This document shows, piece by piece, positions 1,426 through 24,624 of a stretch of 64,000 bases of DNA (position 1 is the first letter of the stretch; each line of letters starts with the position of its first letter). A program made the position numbers and the translations under genes. The stretch lies in NCBI GenBank assembly GCA_031549385.1, contig JAVBPW010000001.1:390661-454660 (forward strand). The letters are read 5' to 3'. The DNA is from Alphaproteobacteria bacterium (GTDB lineage Bacteria > Pseudomonadota > Alphaproteobacteria > Rs-D84 > SZUA-605). A model generated the notes under the pieces. It was not told where the DNA came from. It saw only the letters and a list, made by a program, of their open reading frames with translations, and did not search any database.

Positions 1426-1970
1426 CCTTTTAAACCTAGCTGATAAATTTTTTCTAACATTTTTAATCTTTTTTCTTGGCTTACAAATTGTACACTGTAA
1501 AGAGGTGTTCTTTTTGCCTTAAATCCACAAAATTTAAAAATATGTCTGTTTAAACATTTCCATGTTACAAAGCCTGTTATTAATTGGTAAATCCAAGGTC
1601 CATTTAATGTATAAATAAAACGTACAGTTTTACCTTTCATTAATTTTGCTGGAATCATTCCTTTTCCATATTTGAAAAATACTCCGTGAACTATTGTTTT
1701 GTCTATCCAACCTTTGAATAAAGCAGGAACTGTGCCCCACCAAATAGGACTTTCAATTACTATATGGTCAGCCCATAAAAACCATTTTTGATGTTCTTGT
1801 ATGACTGGTTCAACCATCATGTTGCTGTTTGCAAGTGGGTCGAATTTTGTATCACGTAAAACTATTTTATTTACTTTGTTTTCTTTTTTTGCACCTTTTT
1901 CATAAGCTTCTATTAAGGCTTGTCCGAATGAGCCATGGAATGGGTGGGTGTCTATAATCAGTATATTCAT
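1419..1970 (-). CDS. Flavodoxin-like-fold NAD(P)H dehydrogenase (quinone), KefF/MdaB/general stress protein 14-like
   Basis: 'MNILIIDTHPFHGSFGQALIEAYEKGAKKENKVNKIVLRDTKFDPL' has the N-terminal flavodoxin_2 pattern, with ...WWGTVPALFKGWIDK downstream. AAGGAG RBS on the minus strand at 1977-1982. Confidence 0.6.
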   Translation of the reverse strand: MNILIIDTHPFHGSFGQALIEAYEKGAKKENKVNKIVLRDTKFDPLANSNMMVEPVIQEHQKWFLWADHIVIESPIWWGTVPALFKGWIDKTIVHGVFFKYGKGMIPAKLMKGKTVRFIYTLNGPWIYQLITGFVTWKCLNRHIFKFCGFKAKRTPLYSVQFVSQEKRLKMLEKIYQLGLKGK

Positions 1971-1990
1971 AATTTATCTCCTTGGGGGTA

Positions 1991-2115
1991 CGTTGAATTT
2001 TGGTTACGATTCAAAAGGATTTAAAATTTAAAGACGCATCACGTAGCCATATGTACGCTCAGGTCTTAAAATTTTAAATACTTTCGTTCTCACTCAAAAT
2101 TGAACGACCAATGAT
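1991..2115. repeat. MITE-like intergenic palindromic repeat, copy A (subfamily 1)
   Basis: Terminal inverted repeats CGTTGAATTTTGG...CTCAAAATTGAACG. Internal long hairpin with arms TTTAAAATTTAAAGAC/GTCTTAAAATTTTAAA around the palindromic core CGTAGCCATATGTACG. About 70% identical to copy F. Confidence 0.7.
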
Positions 2116-2242
2116 TTAATATCATTTTAATTATATCAAATTTTTGAATCCTTTACAATATGACAATATTCTCTTAAAAAAGATTGCAAAATTGTTATTT
2201 TTTTTCTATTATTGACCTTTGAATAAAAAAAGGAAAAAGACT

Positions 2243-5200
2243 ATGGCATATCCAAAAACTAATGTATCTGTAAACTTTGTAGAAATAGAAAAAAATATCC
2301 AAAAATTTTGGGAAGATAATAAGATTTTTATGAAGTCAATTGATATTAGAAATGGAGCAGAGGATTTTGTGTTCTTTGATGGACCTCCTACTGGTAATGG
2401 TTTGCCTCATTATGGACATTTGGCAGTGTCTGCTATGAAAGATTGCGTTTGTCGTTATAAGACTATGCAAGGGTACCGAGTTATTAGAAATTTTGGTTGG
2501 GATTGTCATGGACTTCCTGTTGAAATAGAAGTTTGTAAAGAACGTGGACTTGCTGATAGAGATGCTATTTTATCTTATGGTATAGAAAAGTTTAACGGCG
2601 AATGTAAAAAAGATGTTATGAAATATCGTTCTATTTGGGTTGATACTTTAAATAGAGTTGGCAGATGGGGTAACTTTGATGCTGAATATAAGACTATGGA
2701 TTTTTCTTATATGGAATCTGTTATGTGGGCTATTTCTGAGCTTTATAAAAATGATTTACTTTATCAAGGTTATAAAGTTATGGCTTATTCTTATGGAGCT
2801 GAAACATCACTTTCTAATTCAGAAGCTAAGATGGAATATAAGGATAAAGTTGATCCTGCTATTACTGTTGCTTTTAAATTAAAAGATGATTTCTTAAGTA
2901 AGGAAACTCATGTTCTTGTTTGGACTACTACACCTTGGACACTTTGCACTAATTTAGCTTTGGTTGTTGGAAAGGATATTGATTATTCTGTTATGGAAGA
3001 AGATGGAACACAATATATTCTTGCTTCTGCTTTGGTTGCTAATTATAAAAAACAATTAGAAAATGCTACTCTTGTTAAAACTATTAAAGGTTCGGATTTA
3101 TTAGGTAAAGAATATGTGCCTATGTTTGATTATTATGCTCATCTTGAATTTAATAACGCTTTTAAAATCTATGATGCTGATTTTGTTTCAATAACTGATG
3201 GAACTGGAATTGTGCATATGGCTCCTTATGGAGAAGATGACTTTGAAGTTTTAAAGAAAAATAGTATTCCTGTTGTTTCTCCAGTTGACGGAAAAGGTTT
3301 GTTTAATTCAGAAGTTAAAGATTATGCTGGTATGCTTGTTTTTGATGCATCAGAAAAAATTATTCAAGATTTAAAAGAAAGAGGAGTGTTGATAAAAAAA
3401 GAAAACTATACTCACTCTTATCCTTATTGTTGGAGAACTAAAACTCCACTTATTTATAGACCTATGGAATCTTGGTTTGTGAATGTGGAAAAAATAAAAC
3501 AAAATATTATTGATGAAAACAAAGAAATAACTTGGGTGCCTGAACATCTTCGTGATGGACGTTTTGGTAAATGGTTAGAGGGTGCTAAAGATTGGGGTAT
3601 TTCAAGAAATCGTTTTTGGGGATGTCCGCTTCCTATTTGGGTAAGTGATAATCCTGATTTCAAAAGAATTGATGTTTTTGGATCATACGAAGAAATTGAA
3701 AAAGTTTCTGGTCAAAAAATTAGTGATCCACATAAACCTTTTATAGATGAAATTACTTATAAAAATCCTGATGATCCTTCTGGAAAAACTTTGATGAAGA
3801 GAATTCCTGATGTTTTGGATTGTTGGTTTGAAAGTGGAGCTATGCCTTTTGCTGCTCTTCATTATCCGTTCGAAAACAAAGAATTGTTTGAGGAAAGATT
3901 CCCTGCTGACTTTATTGTCGAAGGACAAGACCAAACACGTGGATGGTTTTATACTTTGATGGTGCTTGCTGTTGCATTATTTGGAAAGAAAGCATTTAAG
4001 GTTTGTATGGTTAATGGATTGGTTTTAAATGTTGAAAAGAAAAAACTTTCTAAATCAGAAAAGAATTATGTTTCACCTGATGTATTATTTGAAAGTTTAG
4101 GGGCTGAAGCTTTTAGATGGTATATGCTTAGTTCACCTTTGTTTAAAGCTGAATCTGTGGCATTTGATGAAAAGTTAACTGCTAAGGCTATGAGAGATGC
4201 TTTGATACCTTTATGGAATAGCTATCACTTCTTTACACTTTATGCTAATGCTGATAATGTTGATGCAAAAGAAATTGTAACTTCTTCAAATGTACTTGAT
4301 AGATATATTTTAGCAAAACTTAAAAAATTGTCTGTTGATGTTAAATCTAATATAGATAATTGGTCAGTTGATAAAGCATGTGTTAAAATTGTTGATTTCT
4401 TAGACGTTTTAAATAATTGGTATATCAGACGTTCTCGTGATAGATTCTGGGGGACTGGAATAACTAAAGAAATGTCAATGGAGGCGTTTAATACTCTTTA
4501 CACTGTACTTGTTAATGTGTGTAAAACTATTGCTCCTATTATGCCTCATGTGTCAGAATTTATTTATAAAAATTTAACTAATGAAGAAAGTGTGCATTTA
4601 GTTTTATGGCCAGATTTATCAACAATAGCTGATGAAGATGATTTGATTAAGGCTATGGATCAAGTGCAAGATGTTTGCAGATGTGGTAAATTTATACGTG
4701 AAGAAGAAAGTTTGCGTAACAGATTGCCTCTTGCTTCTGCTACTGTGGTTGGAATCGAATTGGAAGATTATTCTGATGTTATTGCTGATGAGTTAAATGT
4801 TAAAAAAGTTATATTCGATAAAAATCTTCCTCAGTATGCTGATAAGTTTTTGTATTTGATTACTCCTAAGATTGGGGAACGCTTAGGTGGAGCTTTAAAA
4901 GATATTATTCCTGCTTCTAAAAAAAGTGAATATAAACTTGCTAATGGAAAGTGTATTGTTGCTGGGTTTGAATTGAATAATGATGAATTCGAAGAAAGAC
5001 TTGTTTTGAAAAATGGAGTGCATGGAAAAGCATTATCTGATAACAGTGCTGTTGTTATGCTTGATTTAGTTGTTACTCCTGAATTGAAAAAAGAAGGAAT
5101 GGTTCGTGATTTTGTTAGAGCTGTTGCTGATGAAAGAAAAGAAATAGGTTTGGAAGTTACTGACAGAATTAAGCTTTATTATGAAACAGATAATAACGAA

Positions 5201-5338
5201 GTTATAGATGCTTTTAATACTTATTCAGGATATATAAAAGAACAAGTTCTTGCAGAAGTTTTTGAGAAAAATAAGATGGCTAAAAAAGAAGTTTTATTAG
5301 GAGATGTTAAAATATATTTATATTTAACTAAAAATTAG
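2243..5338 (+). CDS. ileS: Isoleucyl-tRNA synthetase, type 2 (eukaryote-like)
   Basis: HYGH motif ('PPTGNGLPHYGHL') and KMSKS motif ('KKLSKSEKN'). The ORF-track start at 2219 is TTG; ATG at 2243 is preceded by an AAGGAAA RBS. Confidence 0.95.
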   Translation: MAYPKTNVSVNFVEIEKNIQKFWEDNKIFMKSIDIRNGAEDFVFFDGPPTGNGLPHYGHLAVSAMKDCVCRYKTMQGYRVIRNFGWDCHGLPVEIEVCKERGLADRDAILSYGIEKFNGECKKDVMKYRSIWVDTLNRVGRWGNFDAEYKTMDFSYMESVMWAISELYKNDLLYQGYKVMAYSYGAETSLSNSEAKMEYKDKVDPAITVAFKLKDDFLSKETHVLVWTTTPWTLCTNLALVVGKDIDYSVMEEDGTQYILASALVANYKKQLENATLVKTIKGSDLLGKEYVPMFDYYAHLEFNNAFKIYDADFVSITDGTGIVHMAPYGEDDFEVLKKNSIPVVSPVDGKGLFNSEVKDYAGMLVFDASEKIIQDLKERGVLIKKENYTHSYPYCWRTKTPLIYRPMESWFVNVEKIKQNIIDENKEITWVPEHLRDGRFGKWLEGAKDWGISRNRFWGCPLPIWVSDNPDFKRIDVFGSYEEIEKVSGQKISDPHKPFIDEITYKNPDDPSGKTLMKRIPDVLDCWFESGAMPFAALHYPFENKELFEERFPADFIVEGQDQTRGWFYTLMVLAVALFGKKAFKVCMVNGLVLNVEKKKLSKSEKNYVSPDVLFESLGAEAFRWYMLSSPLFKAESVAFDEKLTAKAMRDALIPLWNSYHFFTLYANADNVDAKEIVTSSNVLDRYILAKLKKLSVDVKSNIDNWSVDKACVKIVDFLDVLNNWYIRRSRDRFWGTGITKEMSMEAFNTLYTVLVNVCKTIAPIMPHVSEFIYKNLTNEESVHLVLWPDLSTIADEDDLIKAMDQVQDVCRCGKFIREEESLRNRLPLASATVVGIELEDYSDVIADELNVKKVIFDKNLPQYADKFLYLITPKIGERLGGALKDIIPASKKSEYKLANGKCIVAGFELNNDEFEERLVLKNGVHGKALSDNSAVVMLDLVVTPELKKEGMVRDFVRAVADERKEIGLEVTDRIKLYYETDNNEVIDAFNTYSGYIKEQVLAEVFEKNKMAKKEVLLGDVKIYLYLTKN

Positions 5339-5419
5339 TAATTTACCTGATAAAAAACCTCTTGTGTTGATGTTAAAATTATGGTATATTTAATACATCA
5401 ATAAAAAGAGAGGAAAATT

Positions 5420-5917
5420 ATGATAAAAGTTTCTTACGTTATTTTAGCATCTGTTTTGCTAGTATCTGGCTTTGCAGAAGCACAAAGAACAAATGATGGT
5501 ACAGCTTCACGTGCTGGAGTTAGCCGTTTAAATACTGGTGTTGCAAAACCTGCAGCGTCATCTGAAATCAGACCTGCTATTGCTAAACCGACTGTTGCTA
5601 CTGCAGTGAAACCTGTGGAAGCTCAAAAAGTTACTGAAATTGTAGAACCTGTTAAAACTACTGCTATTATAGAAGATACAGAATTAATCAAAAAGAAACA
5701 GGAAGAGTTGGCTAATAAGCAAGCTTTGAAAGAACAATTAGAACTTGAAATCTCTCAAATAGAATCTGAACAAAAACGTTGCGATAAGCAAAAGAAGAAC
5801 TGGACTATTGCAACAGTTGCTGGGTCTGTGGGAACAGTTGCTGGTACTGTGGGTGCTGTTATTCAAGGTAAAGACTTAAAAGAAAAGAAAGAAACACTTA
5901 ACGAGTTAAAGAATTAA
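5420..5917 (+). CDS. Secreted coiled-coil protein with a C-terminal glycine-zipper helix (paralog family member 1)
   Basis: Signal peptide ...SGFAEAQ. N-terminal 'AQRTN..SRAGVSR' is like that of the 731-aa protein. Coiled coil present. C-terminus 'KRCDKQKK..TVAGSVGTVAGTVGAVIQG'. Confidence 0.7.
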   Translation: MIKVSYVILASVLLVSGFAEAQRTNDGTASRAGVSRLNTGVAKPAASSEIRPAIAKPTVATAVKPVEAQKVTEIVEPVKTTAIIEDTELIKKKQEELANKQALKEQLELEISQIESEQKRCDKQKKNWTIATVAGSVGTVAGTVGAVIQGKDLKEKKETLNELKN

Positions 5918-5929
5918 AGGAATTTGAAC

Positions 5930-7213
5930 ATGAAAAAAAGTATATTAATTTTATCAGGCTTGTTGGTTTCACTTAATGCATATGCGCAACAATCAACTAA
6001 ACCTACTGGACTTGTTTTAGAAAAACCAGTTGCACCAACTGCTTCTGGAGTTTCTGCTGTATCAATAAATAGTGAAATTGAACTTGATAATGCAATATTA
6101 AAATTAGATAAAGAAATTAAAACACTTTCTGAAACTCGTCAAAAGAAAGAAGATGAACTTGATAAGTGTTCTAAATCAGTTAAAGGATTTAAAGTTGCTG
6201 GTATTTCCACTTTGTCTGCTACTGGTGTGCTTGCAGGTGTTAATATTTACCAAGGTGTTCAACAAGGTAAATTGAAAGATGAAATTAGAGATGCTTCTGT
6301 TATTAAAGCAGAAAGAGAAAAATTAGTTCAAATTATTAAAACTATTCAATCTACAAGAACAATTACTATGGATCAAATGAGAACTTTGAGAAGTAATTTG
6401 GATAAGTTAACAGAACAAGATAAAGCAGATCTTAGAACTGCTTTAACAGGAAGTAAGATTACTGTTAATTCTGAACGAGAAAAATCAGAAATGGAAGATT
6501 TCTTAAAGATGTTAGATGTTGCTGGTTATACAGTTAATGTTAATCCATTTGTTACAGTTGGTGGACATTGTGTTACTCCTGTAGAAATTTTACAATTTTC
6601 TAATCAAATTCAATATTTAGATACACCAGAAAAGTGCTGTGGAGAACATTTAGTTTGGAATGATGGTAATAATCCAGAAACTAGAAATACAAAAAATATA
6701 AGACCTTATCCAAGATGTGAATTAGATAAAGCTGGATTAGAAAAAGTTCTTGAGTTTGTTTGTAAAAATAATTTAAGATACCATAATACATACGATAATA
6801 TTTATAATTATACAAAAGAAGCCCAAGATTTATTTGAAGAAGCTTCAGGTAAAAAAGGAACTTCAGAAAAAGAATCTCTAGCAAAGATGAAAGCTTATTG
6901 CAAGAAACTTAATTTCAATAATGATTATAAATTTATAAATACAATAGAAGAAGTAAAAAAAGTTGATAATACTTTTGCAACTTTTACAGAAAAATATAAT
7001 GCTATGAAAGATAAATCAGAATTAGTGTTTGGTGATATTCAGTTTTTAATGTGGAATAAAGATTATGTTAAAAATGCTAAAGATAATGCTGTTAGAACAA
7101 GTTTAAAAGGTAAAAAAGTTGTTTTAACTGATAATGAAAAAAAACAAGCTGACCCTTGGATTAAAGAGTTAGAACTTGAATTAACAATTGAGGTTAAGGA
7201 ATCTAAGAAATAA
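5930..7213 (+). CDS. Secreted coiled-coil protein with K-C...glycine-zipper motif (family member 2)
   Basis: Signal peptide ...LNAYAQQ. Motif 'DKCSKSVKGFKVAGISTLSATGVLAGVNIYQGVQQ' is nearly identical to the one in the next gene. ATG at 5930 (track start 5924 is TTG). Confidence 0.7.
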   Translation: MKKSILILSGLLVSLNAYAQQSTKPTGLVLEKPVAPTASGVSAVSINSEIELDNAILKLDKEIKTLSETRQKKEDELDKCSKSVKGFKVAGISTLSATGVLAGVNIYQGVQQGKLKDEIRDASVIKAEREKLVQIIKTIQSTRTITMDQMRTLRSNLDKLTEQDKADLRTALTGSKITVNSEREKSEMEDFLKMLDVAGYTVNVNPFVTVGGHCVTPVEILQFSNQIQYLDTPEKCCGEHLVWNDGNNPETRNTKNIRPYPRCELDKAGLEKVLEFVCKNNLRYHNTYDNIYNYTKEAQDLFEEASGKKGTSEKESLAKMKAYCKKLNFNNDYKFINTIEEVKKVDNTFATFTEKYNAMKDKSELVFGDIQFLMWNKDYVKNAKDNAVRTSLKGKKVVLTDNEKKQADPWIKELELELTIEVKESKK

Positions 7214-7271
7214 TATCAATAAAAAATAAGGGGGGCTTGAGAAAGCCCTCTTTTTATTGTATAATATCTTT

Positions 7272-8066
7272 ATGAAAATTTTATTAGCACTATTATTGTT
7301 TTTTTCTTTTAATGGGTTTGCTCAGTCTGTTGATGCTCAGCTTTTATCTGTTAATGAAAAAATTGAAGAATTGATAAAAATAAAAGATAAAAAATTAATT
7401 GAACTTAATAAATGTGCTAGGTCTGTAAAAGGTTTTAAGGTTGCAGGGATTACTACTTTAACTGCGACTGGTGCTTTGGCAGGGGTTAATGTTTATCAAG
7501 GGGTTGAACAAATTAAAACTCAGAATGCTATTAATGATGAAAAGAGTAGATTAGAAGCTTTAAAACAAGATGAAATAAAGATTATTATTGTTCCAGGGGA
7601 AACTACTGATAGTTTAGTAAAAGATAAAAATAAAACAGAAGAAGAACTTAGAGAGCGTATTAAGAATATGACTCCTGAAGAACGACAAAAATATATAGAT
7701 AGTCAATACTGGCAAAATACTTCAGAAAAAGATATGTATGAAGCAGGTGTTGCTTATTTGGAAAAAGGTCAAAATCAAACTGCTATTGAAAGATTTAATA
7801 AGGCTTTAGAAATGAATCCTAATAATCCTTTTTCTTACTATGGAAGAGGGGCTGCAGAATATCATATAGGAAAATTAAATGAAGCTAAAGCTGATATAGA
7901 AAAATCGCTTGAACTTTGGGTGTTGGATGTAAAATTACCTTTTCATGATTTGAATGTAATATGTTTTAAATGTAGTGCTAAATATGATGAGGTTAAAAAG
8001 GTTTGCTACCGAACAGCTTCTGATGGAAAGCGAGCTGATTTGACTGATTTAAATAAATGTAAATAA
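7272..8066 (+). CDS. Secreted protein with K-C...glycine-zipper motif plus a C-terminal TPR repeat (family member 3)
   Basis: Signal peptide ...NGFAQS. Motif 'NKCARSVKGFKVAGITTLTATGALAGVNVYQGVEQ'. TPR-like segment 'AYLEKGQNQTAIERFNKALEMNPNNPFSYYGRGAAEYHIGKLNEA'. ATG at 7272 (track start 7257 is TTG). Confidence 0.65.
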   Translation: MKILLALLLFFSFNGFAQSVDAQLLSVNEKIEELIKIKDKKLIELNKCARSVKGFKVAGITTLTATGALAGVNVYQGVEQIKTQNAINDEKSRLEALKQDEIKIIIVPGETTDSLVKDKNKTEEELRERIKNMTPEERQKYIDSQYWQNTSEKDMYEAGVAYLEKGQNQTAIERFNKALEMNPNNPFSYYGRGAAEYHIGKLNEAKADIEKSLELWVLDVKLPFHDLNVICFKCSAKYDEVKKVCYRTASDGKRADLTDLNKCK

Positions 8067-8070
8067 AAAT

Positions 8071-8092
8071 AGCCCCATAAGGGGCTTTTTTT
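8071..8092. terminator. Bidirectional intrinsic terminator between convergent genes
   Basis: AGCCCCATAAGGGGCT hairpin flanked by T/A runs on both strands. Confidence 0.7.
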
Positions 8093-8927
8093 AAAACTTC
8101 ACTGGAATATTTTTTGCAACTGAGTCAATCAGTTTCAGTTTTTCCAGTAATGACTTCATGTCTTCCAACCTGATGGAGTTTGGTCCGTCAGATGGAGCAT
8201 TGTCAGGATCGTCATGCGTTTCAAGGAACACACCCGCCATTATTCCTGTAGAAAGCGCGGCACGAGCTAATACTTCCACATGGTCTCTGTTTCCTCCTGT
8301 AGTTGCACCTGCACTGCCCGGTTGTTGGACTGCATGAGTTGCATCAATAATCAGAGGGTAACCAGCGTGACCCATTATGGGAAAGCCTGTTATGTCTACC
8401 ACCAAACCGCCGAAGCCAAATGTAGTTCCCCGTTCAGTGAACATAATATTATCGTTCCCTGTTGAGGCTGCTTTTGCAGCTAAGTTTTGCATCATTTGAG
8501 GGCCTAAAAATTGACCCTTTTTGATGTTAACAACTTTTCCGGTTTCTGCAGCTGCAATCACCAAATCGGTTTGGCGACAAAGAAACGACGGGATTTGCAG
8601 AATATCTGCTACCTGCGCTGCCTTTTCACACTGAATTGTCTCATGCACATCGGTGATTATGGGAAGATTTAATTCTTCCTTAATCCCTTTAAGGATACGT
8701 AATCCTTCTTTCATGCCTACACCTCTTTTTGAGGTGAGGGAAAGCCGGTTTGCTTTGTCGTATGATGATTTGAATATAAGGTTTATATTCAAATCTGTGC
8801 AGACTTTTTTTAGGTGTTCTGCTATCATAAAGCAATGAGCTTCACTTTCAATCTGGCAAGGGCCAGCAATCAATGTGAATGGCAGGTTATTTGCCATTAA
8901 GAAGTTTTTTATTTTAATTGTTTTCAT
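8091..8927 (-). CDS. kdsA: 2-dehydro-3-deoxyphosphooctonate aldolase (KDO-8-phosphate synthase)
   Basis: N-terminus 'ANNLPFTLIAGPCQIES' aligns to the E. coli KdsA 'ANDLPFVLFGGMNVLES'. Length is DAHP/KDO8P-synthase-like. Confidence 0.9.
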   Translation of the reverse strand: MKTIKIKNFLMANNLPFTLIAGPCQIESEAHCFMIAEHLKKVCTDLNINLIFKSSYDKANRLSLTSKRGVGMKEGLRILKGIKEELNLPIITDVHETIQCEKAAQVADILQIPSFLCRQTDLVIAAAETGKVVNIKKGQFLGPQMMQNLAAKAASTGNDNIMFTERGTTFGFGGLVVDITGFPIMGHAGYPLIIDATHAVQQPGSAGATTGGNRDHVEVLARAALSTGIMAGVFLETHDDPDNAPSDGPNSIRLEDMKSLLEKLKLIDSVAKNIPVKF

Positions 8928-9072: not shown

Positions 9073-10551
9073 TTACTTTTCTTCCTTTTTCTTTTCTGGT
9101 TTTAAAGTTGGAAAGGCAATAATATCACGTATGTTTTGATTGTTTGTTAGGAACATTATCAATCTGTCTATTCCTATTCCCATTCCGCCTGTTGGAGGCA
9201 TACCATATTCAAGAGCTGTGATGAAATCTTCATCCAAATCCTCAGCTTCATCGTTTCCTGCTTTGGATTGTCTTACTTGGTCTTCCATACGTTCTCTTTG
9301 ATCCCTTGGATCTGTTAATTCAGTGTATGCATTTGATACTTCTTTTCCATTTATTCTTGTTTCAAAGCGTTCTACTAAACGAGGATGTAGGCGATGCTCT
9401 TTTGTTAATGGTGAAATGTCTTTTGGATAGTCTATTACATGAATTGGTTGGATTAGTTTTGGTTCTACTAATTCAAAAATTGCTTCAATTATTTGACCCC
9501 AATTCTTTCCTTCTTCTACAAAAACTTCTAATTCATCTGCTATTTTTCTTACATCTTGGACAGTTGAATCTAATGAAATATCTCTGCCTAAATATTCTTT
9601 TATTAATTCAAACATTGTTGCGCGTCGAAAAGGTGGTTTGAAATTAATTAAATTTTCACCAACTTGAACTTCATATGTGCCATTGAATTTTAGACATAGA
9701 TGGCCTATTAAATCTTCAAGTAATTTCATCATGTCATTATAGTCTGCATATTGTTCGTATAATTCCATCATTGTGAATTCTGGATTGTGTGTTAGGTCTA
9801 TACCTTCGTTTCTAAACATTTTTCCAATTTCGAAAATCTTTTCATATCCACCTATGATTAATCTTTTTAAATATAATTCTGGAGCAATACGCAAAAACAT
9901 ATCCATATCAAGAGTGTTGTGATGTGTTATAAATGGTCTTGCTGCTGCACCTGTTTTTGTTGTTTGTAGGATTGGTGTTTCTACTTCTATGAATCCAAGA
10001 TTAATTAAAAAATTTCTTATTTCTTGAATCATTAAAAAACGAGTCATAAGAGTATCTCTTGTTTCTTTATTTGAAATCATATCTAAATATCTTTGGCGAT
10101 ATTTTACTTCGTGATCTACTAGCCCATGGAATTTTTCAGGTGGTGGTAATAAATTCTTTGAAAGCATTGTTATAGCTTTTGTACGTACTGTTAATTCACC
10201 AGCTTTTGTTTTAGAAATGATACCTTCTACTCCAACTATATCACCCACTGAAATAGATTTTAGTATCTTTTGGTTTAATTCGTCTAAATCATTTTTGTAT
10301 GAAAATATTTGTATCTTTCCTGTTTGGTCTTGCATGTCCATGAACATGCCAGAATTACGATATGCATAAACACGGCCTGCTACTTTTACTACATCAGTTG
10401 TTGTTTCTTCTGGTTGTAAATTTTTATATTTTTCTTGCAAATCACCGGCTTTTGCTGATGGTTTGAAGATATGTGGGTAGGCATTAATATTTAATTCTTC
10501 TAGTTGTGCTAGCTTTTCTAATCTTGAATCTCTTTGTGGGTTTTGGCTCAT
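9073..10551 (-). CDS. lysS: Lysyl-tRNA synthetase, class II
   Basis: 492 aa. N-terminal OB anticodon-binding region and class II motifs ('FRNEGID', 'GGMGIGIDRLIMFLT'). Confidence 0.95.
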   Translation of the reverse strand: MSQNPQRDSRLEKLAQLEELNINAYPHIFKPSAKAGDLQEKYKNLQPEETTTDVVKVAGRVYAYRNSGMFMDMQDQTGKIQIFSYKNDLDELNQKILKSISVGDIVGVEGIISKTKAGELTVRTKAITMLSKNLLPPPEKFHGLVDHEVKYRQRYLDMISNKETRDTLMTRFLMIQEIRNFLINLGFIEVETPILQTTKTGAAARPFITHHNTLDMDMFLRIAPELYLKRLIIGGYEKIFEIGKMFRNEGIDLTHNPEFTMMELYEQYADYNDMMKLLEDLIGHLCLKFNGTYEVQVGENLINFKPPFRRATMFELIKEYLGRDISLDSTVQDVRKIADELEVFVEEGKNWGQIIEAIFELVEPKLIQPIHVIDYPKDISPLTKEHRLHPRLVERFETRINGKEVSNAYTELTDPRDQRERMEDQVRQSKAGNDEAEDLDEDFITALEYGMPPTGGMGIGIDRLIMFLTNNQNIRDIIAFPTLKPEKKKEEK

Positions 10552-10613
10552 TTTTTTCTCCGTTAACTTTTTCTTTTCTATTATATTTGAGGCAATTTAA
10601 AATACAATAAAAA

Positions 10614-10640
10614 AAGCCCATGAAGGGCTTTCTTTTATTT
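10614..10640 (-). terminator. Intrinsic terminator for rpsT (minus strand)
   Basis: AAAGCCCTTCATGGGCTTT hairpin followed by a U-run on the minus strand. Confidence 0.65.
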
Positions 10641-10658
10641 ATCTTAAAAGCCCTGAAA

Positions 10659-10922
10659 TTATTTCATAGATTTTAATTTAGCTGCCATTCTTGCTGTCTT
10701 TCTTGACGCAGTATTCTTTTTTACTAAACTCTTTGAAGAACCTTTTGCAAGTTGACTTTGTGCTTCATTAAAAGCAGATGACGCTTCTTCTTTATTTCCT
10801 GAAGTGAAAGCTGTTTCAAACTTTTTAACAAAAGTTCTTAATGCTGAAATAACACTTTTGTTTGATTGTCTTTTAGCTTCATTTCTTGTTATTCTTTTTT
10901 TTGCAGATTTATGATTTGCCAT
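10659..10922 (-). CDS. rpsT: 30S ribosomal protein S20
   Basis: 'MANHKSAKKRITRNEAKRQSNKS...' is a typical S20. Confidence 0.95.
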   Translation of the reverse strand: MANHKSAKKRITRNEAKRQSNKSVISALRTFVKKFETAFTSGNKEEASSAFNEAQSQLAKGSSKSLVKKNTASRKTARMAAKLKSMK

Positions 10923-10934
10923 AATTAACTCCTA

Positions 10935-11583
10935 TTATTTCTTTGGTTTTGCTGCTTTTGCTGCGGCTGCTGGTGCAGATGATGCTGCAGGAGCTGCTTT
11001 TTCTTCTTCCATTCTTGAAACACGTGATGGGAGTAAGTTTGCAATTGTATAGTTTATTTTTGTGTCATATAACTTTGCACCTTCTGGAAGATTTAGGTCA
11101 AATAATTTTACAGCACTGTTTGCTGCAAGTGGAGCTAAATCAACTATGATTTGATTTACTATTTTATCAGCATCACATAATAATTTTACAGCACGGATAA
11201 TTACATTTAATGTTCCACCTTGTTTTAAAGCTGTGTTCTTATCACGATTTTCAAAAATAACTGGAACAGAAACTTTTACTTTCTTGTCTTTTGAAATTCT
11301 TAAAAAATCTATATGTAATGGAGTATCTTTTACTGGGTGAAATTGTACGTTTTGGCAAATACATGTTTCTTTTTTGCCGTCGCAGTCAATTTCGAAAACT
11401 CTAGTTTTGAAACCAGGTTTTGTTAATTCCATCATTAATGTTTTTGGATCTGTATTGATTAATACAGGATTTGCATTGTTTCCATAAATTACGCCGGGTA
11501 CAAGGTCTGATCTTCTTGCAGCTCTTGCGGCCCCCTTACCAGCTTCTTTACGGACTTGCACTTTTAAGTTTGTTTTATTCATT
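10935..11583 (-). CDS. rplY: 50S ribosomal protein L25, general stress protein Ctc form (long)
   Basis: 'MNKTNLKVQVRKEAGKGAARAARRSDLVPGVIYG' plus an Ala/Lys-rich C-terminal tail. ATG at 11583; the track start at 11627 is extended. Confidence 0.9.
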
Positions 11584-11711
11584 GCTTTGTCCTTTTTTGT
11601 TATTACGAGTGCCTCCAAGGGTGTCACTCAGGAGTGAGATTATGAAGTAGATTTTACTTAAAGTCAAGAAATATCTTGAATTTTTTTACAATTTGCAGTA
11701 ATGTTAGCCCT

Positions 11712-13391
11712 ATGATAGTTAAAGATAAAATATTGAATTTATTTGGGGATTTAGGGCTGGATTTCATTAATATTAGGAAGTCTGATAGACCTGATTTATC
11801 TGATTTTGCATCTACTGATTGCCTACGTATGGCAAAAGTATTAGGAAAAAAGCCTTTAGATATTGCTAATGAAGTTAAGGAAAAAGTGTCTGGATATGAT
11901 GTTTTTGAAAGTTTATCAGTTGATGGACCTGGTTTTTTAAACTTCAAAATGTCTCAAAATTTTTGGATGGATTGTGTAAATGAGCTTGGAGATGGTAACT
12001 TTATTTATAAAGAAGTTAGTCCTCGTAAGATTATTATTGATTATGGTGGACCTAATATTGCTAAACCTTTACATGCTGGACATTTGCGTTCTGCTGTTAT
12101 TGGGGAAGCTTTAAAGAGGATATTAAAAGAGCCTGGAAATGAAGTTATTGCAGATATTCATCTTGGAGATTGGGGTCTTCAAATGGGATTAGTGTTTGTT
12201 GGGTTGGAAGAAGAAGGTTATAATGCTGATGATATAACTATGGATTTACTTAATGATATTTATCCTAAATATTCTAAATTATCGAAAGAAGATGAATCAC
12301 TTTTAAAGAGAGCTCAAAATTATACATATTTACTTCAAGAAGGTGATAAAAAGTTAAAAACTTTGTGGCAAAAATGTTATGATGTATCTGTTGCTGCTAT
12401 TAAAGAAAATTATGAAAAATTAGATATAACTTTTGATCTTTTTTTAGGAGAATCAGATTCAGAAAAAGTGCTTGTTAATTTGGTTAATGAATTGAAGAAA
12501 AAAGAAGAACTTACTTTTTCAGAAGGTGCTTATGTATTAGAAGTTAAGGAAGATAATGATAAAAAAGAAATGCCTCCACTTCTTATTGTAAAGAGTAATG
12601 GAGCTTTTGGATATCATGGTACAGATTTAGCTACAATTAAACAAAGAGAAGATGATTATCATCCAGATGAAATAATTTATGTTACAGATTTTCGTCAAAA
12701 TTTACATTTTGAACAGGTTTTTAGAGCTGCTAAAAAAGTTGGTGTAATTCGTAAAGAAGTTGGTTTAGTTCATGTTGGTTATGGAACTATGAATGGAACA
12801 GATGGAAAGCCATTTAAAACTCGTGATGGTGGGATTCTTCGTTTAGGTGATTTTATTGAGATTGTTAAAAGAGCTGGTCTTTCTAAAATTAAAGAAGATA
12901 AAATATCTGATACTAATGAAAAGAATCAATTAGCATTAGATATTGGTGTTGCCGCACTTAAATTTGGTGATTTATCTAATGTGGCTACTTCTGATTATGT
13001 TTTAGATTTAGATTCTTTTACTTCATTTGAAGGAAAAACTGGACCTTATATTCAATATAGTGCCGTTAGAATTAAATCATTGCTTGAAAAAGTTGGTAAG
13101 GTTTATAGCGAGATAAAATTCTATAATGAATATGATTTGGATTTAGCTAAGGCTATTTTAGAATTTGATGATGCTTTTGTTGAAGCATACCAAAAATTAG
13201 AACCTCATCATATTTGTTTGAAGGCTTATGAAATTGCTCAAAAGTTTAATACATTTTATCACTTCTGTCATATAGTTTCTGAAACTGACGAAGAGAAGAA
13301 AAACTCTTGGGTGGCTTTATCGTCTTTAACTTTAAAAGTATTTGAAAAGTTCGCTGATTTGGTTGGATTTAAAATAGTGGATAAAATGTAA
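11712..13391 (+). CDS. argS: Arginyl-tRNA synthetase
   Basis: 'PNIAKPLHAGHLRSAVIG' HIGH motif and class I ArgRS C-terminus. Start is uncertain: 11676 in the track, or ATG at 11712. Confidence 0.9.
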   Translation: MIVKDKILNLFGDLGLDFINIRKSDRPDLSDFASTDCLRMAKVLGKKPLDIANEVKEKVSGYDVFESLSVDGPGFLNFKMSQNFWMDCVNELGDGNFIYKEVSPRKIIIDYGGPNIAKPLHAGHLRSAVIGEALKRILKEPGNEVIADIHLGDWGLQMGLVFVGLEEEGYNADDITMDLLNDIYPKYSKLSKEDESLLKRAQNYTYLLQEGDKKLKTLWQKCYDVSVAAIKENYEKLDITFDLFLGESDSEKVLVNLVNELKKKEELTFSEGAYVLEVKEDNDKKEMPPLLIVKSNGAFGYHGTDLATIKQREDDYHPDEIIYVTDFRQNLHFEQVFRAAKKVGVIRKEVGLVHVGYGTMNGTDGKPFKTRDGGILRLGDFIEIVKRAGLSKIKEDKISDTNEKNQLALDIGVAALKFGDLSNVATSDYVLDLDSFTSFEGKTGPYIQYSAVRIKSLLEKVGKVYSEIKFYNEYDLDLAKAILEFDDAFVEAYQKLEPHHICLKAYEIAQKFNTFYHFCHIVSETDEEKKNSWVALSSLTLKVFEKFADLVGFKIVDKM

Positions 13392-13903
13392 TGGATTTGA
13401 AAAACATTAAACTTATTGTTGGGCTTGGTAATGTTGGTGATAAATATAAAAATACTCGTCACAACGCTGGTTTTATTCTTGTTGATAATATTCATGATAA
13501 ATATAATGGTTCTGATTGGAAAACTAAATTCAAAGGTGAAATTTCTGATGTTAAAATAGATGGAAATAAAATATACCTCCTAAAACCTTCTACCTATATG
13601 AACTTGTCTGGGGAAAGCGTTTGTGAGGCTGTGAAATTTTTCAAAATAAAAATAGAAGAAGTATTAGTTGTCCATGATGAAATAGATTTAGAATTTGGGC
13701 AAATTAAAATTAAACAAGGTGGTGGAAATGCTGGTCATAATGGACTTAAAAGTATTTCTCAAATTTGTGGAAATGACTATTTTAGATATAGAGTAGGGGT
13801 TGGTCATCCGCGAGATATTATTCCTGGAATGGAAGTTGCTGATTATGTGTTGAGTAAGTTTAGTTTAGAAGAATTGAAAGAAATTAAACAATTGACTTTC
13901 TGA
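13391..13903 (+). CDS. pth: Peptidyl-tRNA hydrolase
   Basis: 'LIVGLGNVGDKYKNTRHNAGF' is the canonical Pth N-terminus. The ATG overlaps the argS stop (TAATG). Confidence 0.95.
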   Translation: MDLKNIKLIVGLGNVGDKYKNTRHNAGFILVDNIHDKYNGSDWKTKFKGEISDVKIDGNKIYLLKPSTYMNLSGESVCEAVKFFKIKIEEVLVVHDEIDLEFGQIKIKQGGGNAGHNGLKSISQICGNDYFRYRVGVGHPRDIIPGMEVADYVLSKFSLEELKEIKQLTF

Positions 13904-22428: not shown

Positions 22429-24624
22429 ATGAATAAAAAGTTTTTTATAGGATTGGGCGTTTTAGTAGTTGTTTTAGGTTTTAGTGCTAATGCTTATGCT
22501 CAACGTGCTAATACATCTGCAGCTGTGAAAAAACAACAAACTGGTAGAGCAGGAGTTGCACGAGCAGGAATTACACGTATAACAACTGTTGCGACAAAAG
22601 TTCCAACAAGTGGTGGTACAACTACAGATACAACAACTGATGATACAAAATTAGATTCACTTGCTTGTTCAAAAGCTTTTTATAATAAACTTGTTGAAAG
22701 TGGAGTTTGTGGGGGAGCCAACTTATCTACATGTAATGCTGATTTCAAAGTTTCTTTGATGAATGGGGATTATACAGCTTTTATGGCAAGTAAAGGTTAT
22801 ATAGCTCAAACAGTATTTACAAATTGTGATTGTGGAACTGACAGTGCTGGAACTGCTTTGGATTGTAAGAAGGTTGCTGCTATGTATGTTGGTTCTGTTA
22901 TGACTGATGGAATTATTAAAGATTATTATTCTTGCCAAAGAAGTTTTAATTCTTGTGCTAATGCAGTTTGTGGAACTGATTATGCTAATTGTGCTGATCT
23001 GTTAACAGAAAAAACTTATCCAACTGATGGAGTTGAATCTGCTCAAGCTATTTCTAGAGAATTAGAAAAGTTATTAGGTGAATTAAACTCAGGTAGTGCT
23101 TATGCTTCTACTATTTCAGGAGTTGGTACAAGACTTCAAAAAAGATTAGGAGAATGTCGCGCTAATATCTTAGATAAGTGTGAAATCGCTTCTGCTGATG
23201 GTACTTCTGATAATGCTACAAGAAGACAAGAAATCTTTGATGAATATAGAGATGGATTAATCAGAAATGGTTCAAAAGCTTTGATTGCTCGTTATGGTAA
23301 TGATGCTAAGAAAAGTATTATGGATGCATATTCATGTGTTGATTCAGTTGATGCTTGTATGAAAAAACAATGTGGAAGTGACTATAACAAATGTTTAAAT
23401 GATGACTTTACAGTTAATACTTCTGCTGTAAATAACTTCAAATCACTTTGCCAACAAGATCTTATTTCTTGTGCTGAAGTAAGAGCATTGGCTCAGTTAG
23501 AGGGATACCAATACTTAGCTGATGTTAAGGTTGACGGTGTTGCTCAAGTATGGAATGATTTTATTACAAACAGAGTGCTTGCTTATGCTAATGCAAAAGC
23601 TGTGGATCGTAAGAAATTAGAAGAAAAATTAGAAAATCTATTATCATTTGCTCAAAAGAGCTGTCAAGATAATGGTGGTGTAGTTCAATTTATCCAAGAA
23701 AAATTGGCTATCTACGACGCAAAATATGGTACATCACGTACAAACGATCAGGTTGCTAATGATACTGGATTGTTTGGAACTACTACAGTTGATGGTGATT
23801 TAGAATATTCAACAACTGCAAATGATGGAGCTCGTAAAGGGGATAGATTTTATAACAAAATGGTTTGTGCGTTCCCGTTAACAGGAAACAAAGATGCTAA
23901 TTCAAATATGCCAAAAATCATATTAATGGGTGAAAGCAAGGTTTGTGATGCTACATTCTTTGATGTTGATAAAAAAGCTGGTGGAAGAATTGTAGGTTCT
24001 ATCGTTGGTGCTGGAGTTGGTACTGCTGCTGGATTGTTGACAAGTGGTGCATTGAAGAAAGACCCATCAAAAGATATTGCTGATATTAACATAGCTATTC
24101 TTAAAGTAGAAGAATGTATAGCAGCAAAAGATGATGTTAATAAATATGATAAACTTAGAGAAGAAGCAGCTAATTTAGTTAATAAGGCTGGTGTTATGGT
24201 AACTGTTGATAATGCTTGTGATTCTGGAACAAAAGCGAGTTTGACTAAAAAGTTAGATCAAGGTGGTGGAAAATTAATTGAAAATCAAAAAGCTCAAAAT
24301 GCTGTACTTGGTACTGCTGGTGGGTTAGCTCTTGGTGCTGCTGGATTTGGTGTTGGTTCTGCTATTGATAAAAAGAATGCTGAAAAGAAACAAGATGAAT
24401 TGAAGTGTGTTGTTGGTGGAAAACAATATGCAATTGGAGAAACAATTACTGTTGCAAGAAGCTCAGCTTTCAGAGAACTTGAAGATTTCTATCAACAAAA
24501 TCCTAACTTGTTGGCAGAAAGAGGTGAATACATCAATTCTAAGTACAGAGGTGAATCTGTAGTTGCTGGACCTCAAGGAGATCAGAAAGATAGCAATATT
24601 AAGAATGAAAGTTTATTCCAATAA
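22429..24624 (+). CDS. Large secreted Cys-rich protein (731 aa) carrying two glycine-zipper helices of the 5.4-8.1 kb family
   Basis: Signal peptide ...ANAYAQR. N-terminus 'AQRAN..TGRAGVARAGITR' resembles the 5420 protein. About 30 Cys in paired CxnC spacing. 'GGRIVGSIVGAGVGTAAGLLTSGALKK' and 'NAVLGTAGGLALGAAGFGVGSAIDKK'. Strong RBS. Confidence 0.75.
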   Translation: MNKKFFIGLGVLVVVLGFSANAYAQRANTSAAVKKQQTGRAGVARAGITRITTVATKVPTSGGTTTDTTTDDTKLDSLACSKAFYNKLVESGVCGGANLSTCNADFKVSLMNGDYTAFMASKGYIAQTVFTNCDCGTDSAGTALDCKKVAAMYVGSVMTDGIIKDYYSCQRSFNSCANAVCGTDYANCADLLTEKTYPTDGVESAQAISRELEKLLGELNSGSAYASTISGVGTRLQKRLGECRANILDKCEIASADGTSDNATRRQEIFDEYRDGLIRNGSKALIARYGNDAKKSIMDAYSCVDSVDACMKKQCGSDYNKCLNDDFTVNTSAVNNFKSLCQQDLISCAEVRALAQLEGYQYLADVKVDGVAQVWNDFITNRVLAYANAKAVDRKKLEEKLENLLSFAQKSCQDNGGVVQFIQEKLAIYDAKYGTSRTNDQVANDTGLFGTTTVDGDLEYSTTANDGARKGDRFYNKMVCAFPLTGNKDANSNMPKIILMGESKVCDATFFDVDKKAGGRIVGSIVGAGVGTAAGLLTSGALKKDPSKDIADINIAILKVEECIAAKDDVNKYDKLREEAANLVNKAGVMVTVDNACDSGTKASLTKKLDQGGGKLIENQKAQNAVLGTAGGLALGAAGFGVGSAIDKKNAEKKQDELKCVVGGKQYAIGETITVARSSAFRELEDFYQQNPNLLAERGEYINSKYRGESVVAGPQGDQKDSNIKNESLFQ

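Follow-up and report, generated by a model that had tools for sequence, protein, structure and literature searches.

The two-transmembrane (2TM) glycine-zipper lipoproteins, exported envelope proteins that include SlyB, YfgH, OsmB and YiaD of Escherichia coli and the rickettsial 17-kDa antigen (PF05433), contain glycine-rich, marginally hydrophobic helices that pass the Sec machinery, embed in a membrane and oligomerise (bioRxiv 10.64898/2025.12.22.696046). A short helix of the GxxxG type is likewise joined to a cargo or toxin domain in Tde1, where it lies in the N-terminus of this type VI secretion system (T6SS) effector of Agrobacterium tumefaciens, and in TelE, an LXG protein of the type VII secretion system (T7SS); the helix is needed for membrane insertion or translocation in Tde1 (PMC10240207) and, reportedly, in TelE (PMC10434224). 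Here we analyse three consecutive genes, g1, g2 and g3, on a 64-kb stretch of alphaproteobacterial DNA (64,000 nucleotides of contig JAVBPW010000001.1, hereafter the window), and find that they are one locus of a widespread, unannotated "coiled-coil-Cys-glycine-zipper" system of exported proteins of two types, A and B. We tentatively propose that A and B would together form a disulfide-stapled membrane anchor that displays variable domains at the cell envelope.

A paired family of exported proteins

The three genes lie in tandem on the plus strand of the window. In the list of open reading frames (ORFs), g1 (5420-5917) encodes an A-type protein of 165 aa, and g2 (5930-7213) and g3 (7272-8066) encode B-type proteins of 427 and 264 aa, with alternative TTG starts at 5924 and 7257 that would lengthen them to 429 and 269 aa. 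On a public contig with an identical stretch, the genes are called at 165, 427 and 264 aa. An initial annotation of this DNA had described three consecutive tandem paralogues with cleavable signal peptides, and both the arrangement and the export signals were borne out. Inspection of the sequence reveals a basic n-region, a hydrophobic core and an AxA-type cleavage site followed by Gln in all three products (FAEA↓Q in g1, AYA↓Q in g2 and GFA↓Q in g3), as well as in a 731-aa ORF further along the window (AYA↓Q). By the same inspection g1-g3 have no lipobox, there being no Cys in or beside their signal peptides.

The block of sequence reported to be shared by g2 and g3 is readily confirmed by BLASTP (40% identity over 119 aa, E = 5e-22). 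Its 34-aa core, KC(S/A)(K/R)SVKGFKVAGI(S/T)TL(S/T)ATG(V/A)LAGVN(I/V)YQGV(Q/E)Q, lies at 6164-6265 in g2 and 7410-7511 in g3 and is identical at 27 of 34 positions. The two cores are 76% identical in nucleotide sequence, and because 13 of the 27 identical residues are encoded by different codons, we conclude that the block is held by purifying selection on the protein. The same codon differences rule out a recent duplication or gene conversion as its origin. Over the whole window, a hidden Markov model (HMM) of the module matches g2 and g3 only, with g1 returning an E value of ~2 in the correct region; a broader B-module HMM scores g2 at 102 bits and g3 at 91 bits.

A word-indexed protein search with g2 returned g2 itself and one metagenomic relative, P0002, its sole full-length homologue, which is 33% identical overall and nearly invariant in the block. 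An exhaustive search with a profile built from g2, P0002 and g3 against 1.84 billion representatives (clusters at 50% identity) yielded 297 clusters at E <= 1e-3, of which 36 reach E <= 1e-10. Beyond the query sequences (P0001, P0002 and P0004, the last being g3), the hits are confined to the module at profile positions ~45-135, which occupies residues ~20-110 of proteins that range from 75 to 1139 aa; a word-indexed search with the module alignment retrieved only short members of ~90-135 aa. Members share a common plan: a signal peptide, the sequence ..QIQMLDxEIxxLxxEKQxKxxELEK-C-AKSVKGFKIAGISTLGLTAVGVGVNIYQA.., often an extra coiled coil, and then C-termini that are unrelated to one another, mostly very Cys-rich and of extreme variety. 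The modular organisation envisaged by the initial annotation, in which exported proteins combine a module of coiled coil, Cys and Gly-rich helix with differing C-terminal modules, is thus real. Its supposed restriction to one lineage is not, as shown by the 297 clusters and by the varied labels of the metagenome-assembled genomes (MAGs) in which members occur.

Genome contigs with matches come from MAGs titled Rickettsiales bacterium, Alphaproteobacteria bacterium (goat rumen) and uncultured proteobacterium (rumen), with three loci in RGIG3440 and two in RUG12172, and two short contigs with matches are binned as Muribaculaceae or Bacteroidales. One family member is labelled "[Alphaproteobacteria bacterium]" by NCBI, a metagenome scan gave three loci, and the GC content of the loci spans about 31-52%. 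The NusA, IF2 and DnaX proteins of the window share 47-53% identity with their counterparts on two family-bearing contigs, so the window organism is a fairly distant relative. The carriers, whose surface biology is all but uncharted, are known solely from MAGs and metagenomes.

No characterised domain corresponds to the block in Pfam, NCBIfam, PHROGs or PDB. Pfam leaves the module unrecognised in the 146 members scanned and reports only sporadic C-terminal domains (Thioredoxin, Peptidase_M23, Trypsin, CarboxypepD_reg and tetratricopeptide repeats, TPR). Scans of the four window proteins (g1-g3 and the 731-aa protein) against Pfam, NCBIfam and PHROGs gave nothing except the TPR in g3, and PDB sequence and profile searches with the module, the g2 C-terminus and the 731-aa protein returned only sub-threshold coiled-coil and ATP-synthase c-subunit noise. 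Relatives of the module were likewise absent from IMG/VR contigs, phage records and plasmids, and a full-text literature search with motif strings and related descriptions found no prior description of the family. The kinship with the rickettsial 17-kDa antigen and other Gly-zipper families that had been suggested turned out to be a likeness of composition only. In an hmmscan of the four window proteins, none of PF05433 (Rick_17kDa_Anti), PF13488 (Gly-zipper_Omp), PF13441 (Gly-zipper_YMGG) and PF13436 (Gly-zipper_OmpA) appeared at E <= 1, NCBIfam gave the same proteins no Gly-zipper match, and Gly-zipper families are absent among the 25 most-matched of the 26 Pfam families listed for the 146 members at E <= 1e-3. 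A 2TM hairpin is lacking as well, since each A or B module has a single hydrophobic segment of ~21 residues and the two helices of the 731-aa protein lie 80 residues apart.

Two further observations came from the Pfam scans. The KxYKxGKxW_sig model matched four B members weakly (best E = 3e-4), probably via the K-x-x-K-G-[F/W] collar of the module, and one member is fused to RecR/Toprim domains. The fusion is likely an artefact of assembly or gene calling, because dnaX adjoins the locus in L008 and L014.

The initial annotation placed the three genes in one family and read part of g1 as a variant of the block. They are indeed homologous, but they are not equivalent: g1 belongs to a distinct subfamily, A, that is paired with the B subfamily of g2 and g3. 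When fetched loci were scanned with the B-module HMM, a small ORF with a weak match was found to precede each strong B gene. These ORFs share the consensus ..L..I..L......C-E-K-x-[RK]-K-x-W-x-A-A-T-V-I-G-G-V-G-V-V-x-T-G-x-x-A-I-V-Q-G-K.. followed by a Lys-rich tail of 15-25 residues. A first A HMM, built from six sequences (the window, L002, L005, L006, L009 and L010), detected A genes outside its training set directly upstream of B in L003, L011/L012, L013 and L014 with E values of 2e-15 to 3e-26, and a nine-sequence version found further A genes upstream of B in L015, L018, L019 and L020, which are in neither training set. The g1 protein, itself a training sequence, scores 96.5 bits against the A HMM and, in BLASTP, finds the A proteins of 10 other loci with E values of 3e-14 to 2e-4. 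In 14 of the 17 loci with upstream DNA, the first B gene directly follows an A gene, and the stop codon of A often overlaps the start codon of B. Several B genes can share a single A, as in the A-B-B arrays of the window and L020.

The relationship of g1 to the block is not significant in pairwise comparison (BLASTP; Smith-Waterman p ~0.02), but it is significant when profiles are compared. An hhalign alignment of the A profile with the B profile spans 62 columns without a gap and has a probability of 96.7% and an E value of 3.3e-10, pairing Cys with Cys, Trp with Phe and Gln with Gln, and individual A and B proteins hit each other in cross BLASTP at up to ~1e-7. The profile alignment and the cross-hits indicate that g1 is a genuine, ancient paralogue of g2 and g3 that appears to have a role of its own.

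Although exported families of this kind are in themselves unsurprising in uncultured bacteria, the module is an apparent common handle for a large and diverse set of Cys-rich exported domains (at least 297 clusters). It provides a searchable signature for envelope and surface proteins that are now "hypothetical" in databases, and the A/B definition predicts a specific small partner, A, at each locus.

Architecture of the shared module

In g1, the signal peptide (aa 1-21) is followed by a spacer rich in Pro, Ala, Val and Lys, a coiled coil (aa ~88-120) and the only Cys, Cys121 (5780-5782), which begins the motif C-x-K-x-x-K-x-W. A Gly-rich helix (aa ~128-149; 5801-5866) ends in IQG and leads into a K/E-rich tail of 16 aa. 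In g2, the signal peptide (aa 1-19) is followed by a spacer, a coiled coil (aa ~50-79), Cys80 (6167-6169), a hydrophobic helix (aa ~87-108) and a further helical region, and then by a C-terminal domain of ~310 aa with six Cys, in agreement with the region of about 300 aa that had been noted there. In g3, the signal peptide (aa 1-17) passes straight into the coiled coil, which leads to Cys48 (7413-7415) and a hydrophobic helix (aa ~55-76). After a linker come the TPR repeats (~7734-7916) and, at the C-terminus, a four-Cys tail. The repeats, which had also been noted, are well above gathering score (TPR_2, 40.1 bits against a cut-off of 27; TPR_1, 40.1 bits against 27.8; Pfam E = 2e-10) and make up two stretches (aa ~160-215 in the numbering of the 269-aa form).

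Column statistics were calculated from 169 non-redundant B modules and 14 A modules, with the invariant Cys as position 0. The coiled coil follows an a/d heptad pattern at -21, -17, -14, (-10), (-7), -3 and 0, which places the Cys at a "d" position. The conserved hydrophobic positions are -21, -17, -14, -3 and 0 (the Cys) in B and -14, -10, -7 and 0 in A. The subfamilies part at core positions -10 and -7: B has Lys or Arg at the former in 142 of 169 modules and Lys at the latter in 132 of 169, whereas A has Ile at -10 (11 of 14) and Leu or Ile at -7 (14 of 14). A core with Lys or Arg in B and with Ile or Leu in A would disfavour B-B pairing and favour A-B pairing.

The a/d stripe runs on from the coiled coil into the hydrophobic helix. 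In B it continues through F7, G11, T14, T18, G21 and N25, each present in 127-167 of the 169 modules, to Q/L28; in A it comprises W7, T11, G14, T21, A25 and Q28, each in 12-14 of 14. Conservation in B peaks at 4.0-4.2 bits at G11, T18 and N25 on the stripe and at A10 and I9 off it. Such a stripe matches the "inside-out" pattern expected of a coiled coil that carries on through the membrane. The helix itself is 54% (B) or 65% (A) Gly, Ala, Ser and Thr, has a Kyte-Doolittle hydropathy of 1.5-1.7, and sums on the Hessa scale to ~+4 (B) and ~+3 (A) kcal/mol, figures that are approximate because they are simple sums of the values of Hessa et al. 2005. Lys and Arg residues flanking the helix number 4.6 on the N-terminal side and 2.7 on the C-terminal side.

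The cysteines show a pattern of their own. Mature A proteins contain exactly one Cys in 11 of 14 cases, g1 among them, and the number of Cys after the module Cys in B is even in 140 of 159 proteins (88%), including 94 of 104 long ones. The B C-termini have a median of 12 Cys at a density of 4%. Their dominant spacings are CxC and Cx10-13C, CxxC occurring only rarely (41 among 1494 Cys), and 0.9% of their residues are His. On account of the rarity of CxxC and the low His content, we reject Zn sites as the reason for the even counts. Taken together, the even counts, the rare CxxC and the low His content argue that the B C-terminal domains are disulfide-rich and extracytoplasmic, with the module Cys as the odd one out, as would fit an intermolecular bond.

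An AlphaFold2 (AF2) model of g3, based on a 40-sequence alignment, shows one continuous helix from aa 18 to 65 that runs through Cys48. The predicted local distance difference test (pLDDT) is 93-98 over aa 21-50 and ~47-63 past residue 50, the hydrophobic segment included; confidence is good only for the coiled coil and moderate for the TPR part. The model of g2, from a 3-sequence alignment, is poor (pLDDT 58; predicted template modelling score, pTM, 0.30). As a compact natural coiled coil that appears to continue in register into a membrane helix, with a polar core stripe and a putative charge code for heteromer specificity, the module is of interest for membrane-protein design.

Genomic setting and neighbouring genes

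To the left of g1 lies the gene for isoleucyl-tRNA synthetase, IleRS (2219-5338). The stop codon of g1 (5917) and the start of g2 (5930) are separated by a 12-nt gap. A 58-nt spacer separates g2 from g3, and consensus scans place in it both a terminator-like hairpin followed by a T-run (7228-7253) and, overlapping the hairpin, a strong plus-strand sigma-70-like promoter (TTGAGA-17-TATAAT, 7237-7265; 11 of 12 matches). These two elements set g1-g2 apart from g3, and the genes thus look like two transcription units, g1-g2 and g3. From the position of the promoter-like site, TTG 7257 is probably not the start of g3 and ATG 7272 is favoured. A bidirectional terminator-like hairpin (8071-8086) separates g3 from the convergent kdsA-like gene on the minus strand (8091-8927). 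The neighbours on the public contig are housekeeping genes, namely those for DAHP_synth_1 (KdsA), LysRS, S20, L25, ArgRS, Pth, SspB, an integrase and MlaA. The GC content is ~30% throughout the window, and an Rfam scan of the 64 kb at gathering threshold found no RNA family (no tRNA, rRNA, riboswitch or leader).

Other loci carry additional genes beside the A/B pair. A gene for ~200-227 aa directly follows a short, module-only B of ~115-135 aa, with a Gly-rich linker and then a small cluster of Cys at its end, in L011/L012 (L011 8366-9037), L013 (8368-8961), L014 (8419-9102), L018 (6426-7052) and L020 (6082-6711). Comparison of the products from L011, L013 and L014 shows that this "C" gene is conserved there, with a signal peptide and the motif PDK.VWVEK...C.P.NPC, and its product may be a variable domain supplied in trans. 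Downstream of the A/B arrays of L011 (11510-13375) and L017 (6775-7641, at the contig end) are two Cys-rich signal-peptide proteins, 51% identical and with the motif C-x6-RC-x-PKCSSGGC, which may be a further component of the system. L017 also has four tandem B-type genes (1626-6338) and no upstream A, so either arrays can grow with no A present or the genome may have its A gene at another site. At one locus only, L014, three proteins of 400-475 aa are encoded downstream of the A-B-C cluster (9522-13445). Two of these, E and F, are clearly prepilin-like at the N-terminus (G↓ASMLE.. and G↓GMLIE..), D being a weaker case with Gln at +5.

The 731-aa signal-peptide protein (22429-24624, plus strand) had been thought to contain the module twice. 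It has 24 Cys, Gly-rich hydrophobic helices at aa 521-543 and 622-645, and two copies of a C-x6-C-x4-C-x6-C motif (aa 169-188 and 303-322). A word-indexed search of a 5.8-billion-protein set found no homologue beyond itself, and it has no Pfam or PDB match. The presence of the module could not be upheld: hhalign assigns the protein a probability of 1-2% against either profile, HMM E values are 0.57-7 (with the module HMM, ~7 and in the wrong region), and the protein shares with the module only its Gly-rich hydrophobic composition, without the Cys, K..KG[FW] or Gln landmarks. The proposed match between its N-terminus and that of g1 also proved weak (BLASTP E = 0.25; Smith-Waterman p ~0.006 on hand-picked segments). 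A statistically weak motif, (S/G)RAG(V/T)..R, does follow the signal peptide in g1 (aa 22-40; 5483-5540), in the 731-aa protein (22501-22590) and in the long A protein of L015 (731-1228). Kinship of the 731-aa protein with the Cys-rich proteins of L011 and L017 was considered and dropped, as comparison gave no significant similarity. Membership of the 731-aa protein in the A/B family is not supported by these comparisons.

Possible roles and relation to known systems

The reading that we favour, with something short of an even chance of being correct, is that A and B form a disulfide-stapled heteromeric membrane anchor for variable ectodomains. Both proteins would be exported via Sec and their signal peptides cleaved, leaving the shared module of ~60 residues: four coiled-coil heptads, the invariant "d" Cys, the basic K-x-x-K-G-[F/W] collar and a helix of ~21 residues, rich in Gly, Ala, Ser and Thr and closed by Asn or Gln. 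A and B would then pair in parallel through the four heptads, as a dimer or a higher-order heteromer, with specificity coded by the Lys-versus-Ile/Leu core, and a disulfide between their "d" cysteines would staple the pair just above the membrane. From there the coiled coil would run unbroken into the hydrophobic helices, which would be buried as a bundle with Gly, Thr, Asn and Gln at the interface and Ile, Leu and Val toward lipid. According to this proposal, the module would be a common anchor and oligomerisation device that tethers diverse disulfide-rich extracytoplasmic domains to the envelope, and in the window the single A protein, g1, would serve two B proteins, one with the novel ~310-aa six-Cys domain (g2) and one with the TPR and four-Cys tail (g3).

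Both ends of B are apparently extracytoplasmic, and the helix is poor as a Sec stop-transfer sequence, so we favour insertion after export over a type-I anchor in the inner membrane. The most likely site would be the outer membrane, with the coiled coil in the periplasm and the variable domain at the surface. A precedent for glycine-zipper helices in the outer membrane exists in the SlyB/YfgH-type lipoproteins (bioRxiv 10.64898/2025.12.22.696046). A bolder version of the proposal, which we consider speculative and unlikely, is that the module is an unrecognised alpha-helical outer-membrane anchor or export device, a disulfide-stapled hetero-oligomeric bundle that presents Cys-rich domains at the surface or threads them to it. 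If true, it would achieve with helices, and without a lipid anchor, the kind of surface display known from autotransporters or lipoproteins, and would be a general "plug-in" system of its carriers, which to date are MAGs labelled for the most part as rumen Alphaproteobacteria; an anchor in the outer membrane would be a new way of attaching proteins to the diderm cell surface.

Several points weigh against the stapled A-B anchor. The helix is conserved on all faces (off-stripe I9, A10, I12 and I26 each exceed 3 bits), a pattern that could instead arise if a machine recognises the helix or if the helix packs into a larger ring. The contact between A and B and the disulfide are themselves read from sequence patterns, overall AF2 confidence is low (pLDDT 58 for g2 and 65 for g3), and some bona fide transmembrane (TM) helices of polytopic proteins score equally badly on Hessa sums. 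The more basic N-flank misfits a simple N-out inner-membrane anchor under the positive-inside rule, yet it is no proof of the outer membrane, and neither a lipobox nor another known outer-membrane targeting signal is present in A or B. To our knowledge, there is no established precedent for a single, fully apolar alpha-helix that serves as an outer-membrane anchor without a lipid anchor. As to the pairing, B lacks an upstream A in 3 of the 17 loci (L008, L016 and L017), and g3 appears to be a separate transcription unit.

Of the other explanations, a membrane-inserting toxin or translocation module is unlikely but credible: the A/B helices of a polymorphic-effector system might enter a foreign (competitor or host) membrane or the cell's own outer membrane, there to form a pore or let the C-terminal cargo pass. 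A conserved N-terminal module ahead of highly variable C-termini would suit such a system, as would a marginally hydrophobic helix able to stay soluble until it meets a membrane, and adjacent paralogous genes with small-xxx-small helices recall the two-peptide bacteriocins. Glycine zippers drive permeabilisation and translocation in the T6SS effector Tde1 (PMC10240207) and, reportedly, toxicity in the T7SS effector TelE (PMC10434224). One Peptidase_M23 and one trypsin domain among the 146 members provide a few lytic or proteolytic C-termini, but almost none of the members has a recognised toxin domain, and C-termini with TPR or large EGF-like Cys-rich arrays are what one expects of proteins that bind or adhere, not of proteins that kill. 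Toxins may nevertheless be present among the domains that match no known family. Moreover, in the window and the loci no conserved immunity-like small gene was seen after B (the next gene in the window being kdsA, on the opposite strand) and secretion-system genes are not consistently adjacent. The classical inner-membrane type-I anchor, in which the coiled coil would be periplasmic, the helix a stop-transfer sequence, and the A tail and B C-termini cytoplasmic, strikes us as improbable. For a protein with a signal peptide and, after it, a single hydrophobic helix, no Sec topology is simpler; the anchor accords with a Kyte-Doolittle value of 1.5-2.0, within the TM range, and the K-rich A tail would obey the positive-inside rule. 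Set against this are a helix that is 54-65% Gly, Ala, Ser and Thr with Hessa sums of +3 to +4 kcal/mol, its more basic N-flank, and B C-termini with 4% Cys, even numbers of it in 88%, almost no CxxC and low His. The C-terminal Pfam domains (Peptidase_M23, Trypsin, CarboxypepD_reg, Thioredoxin and TPR) also count for extracytoplasmic C-termini, with M23, trypsin and CarboxypepD_reg in particular pointing to an oxidising, extracytoplasmic site.

We judge it just as improbable that the module is a sorting signal or the core of a pilin-like polymer, a filament or ring with A as the major or adaptor subunit and B proteins as decorated subunits. That the helix is conserved off the a/d stripe as well as on it would make sense in a polymer, as would several B proteins to a single A (window and L020), and the K-G-[F/W] that invariably opens the helix resembles the [K/R]-G↓F context of prepilin cleavage; three prepilin-like genes also lie downstream in L014. 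This resemblance founders, however, on the Sec-type signal peptide and coiled coil ahead of the helix, which are incompatible with class III (prepilin) topology, and on the Gly or Thr found at +5 in place of Glu. Genes for peptidases, ATPases or sortase-like proteins are not consistently linked in the window and loci, and the pilin-like neighbours occur at one locus only. Finally, the scheme of the initial annotation, which puts four members in one lineage-specific family, counts the 731-aa protein among them and makes the family kin to the Rick_17kDa/Gly-zipper antigens, is very improbable. The 731-aa protein does carry a signal peptide of this type (AYA↓Q) and two Gly-rich helices similar in composition to those of SlyB, and it has the short (S/G)RAG(V/T)..R motif in common with g1 and the A of L015, but hhalign gives it only 1-2% against the A or B profile. 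Pfam and NCBIfam give no Gly-zipper match at E <= 1 and there is no lipobox, the module is one helix with a coiled coil and a Cys rather than a 2TM hairpin, and the family extends beyond this lineage.

How, then, does the A/B module compare with systems already described? Among the closest are the 2TM glycine-zipper lipoproteins, whose helix composition resembles that of the g1 and 731-aa helices. A and B differ from them in having cleavage sites of the signal peptidase I type without a lipobox Cys, one helix instead of two, a fusion of this helix in register to a coiled coil with a Cys, a heterotypic gene pair and variable C-terminal domains. Tde1 and TelE, in turn, have no Sec signal peptide, depend on the T6SS or T7SS, and lack a coiled coil, Cys and partner paralogue, and no sequence relationship to them was detected.

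Other likenesses lie in layout. Type IV pilins and pseudopilins combine a conserved hydrophobic helix of ~21 residues after [K/R]-G-F with a variable and often disulfide-bonded head, and their helices pack together in the assembly; the pilin helix, however, stands directly behind a short cytoplasmic leader (the class III signal) and bears Glu5. In A and B a Sec signal peptide and a coiled coil of 30 residues come before the K-G-F, which is found ~50-85 residues into the protein; there is no Glu5, and neither an assembly ATPase nor a peptidase is linked. Phage i-spanins such as lambda Rz have a TM helix, periplasmic coiled coils, intermolecular coiled-coil disulfides and a small partner encoded beside or within the gene. 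Rz differs in its N-terminal TM helix without a cleaved signal peptide, and its partner, Rz1, is an unrelated lipoprotein; the A/B module has no PHROG match and no viral, phage or plasmid relatives, and its neighbours are housekeeping genes. TpsA/CdiA proteins and polymorphic toxins, with a signal peptide, a conserved N-terminal module, extremely variable C-termini and multiple paralogues per genome, have the same layout as A and B, which also occur at multiple loci per MAG (RGIG3440 and RUG12172). The A/B module is nevertheless a helix of ~60 residues and not a beta-helical TPS domain of ~250 aa, the partner is a small paralogue and not an Omp85 transporter, and toxin/immunity pairs were not seen in the window or loci.

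By the tests run, pilins, i-spanins and TpsA/CdiA are partial analogues, none of them appearing homologous to A or B. The module belongs to no described family, and its working principle is one that it has in common with glycine-zipper membrane modules.

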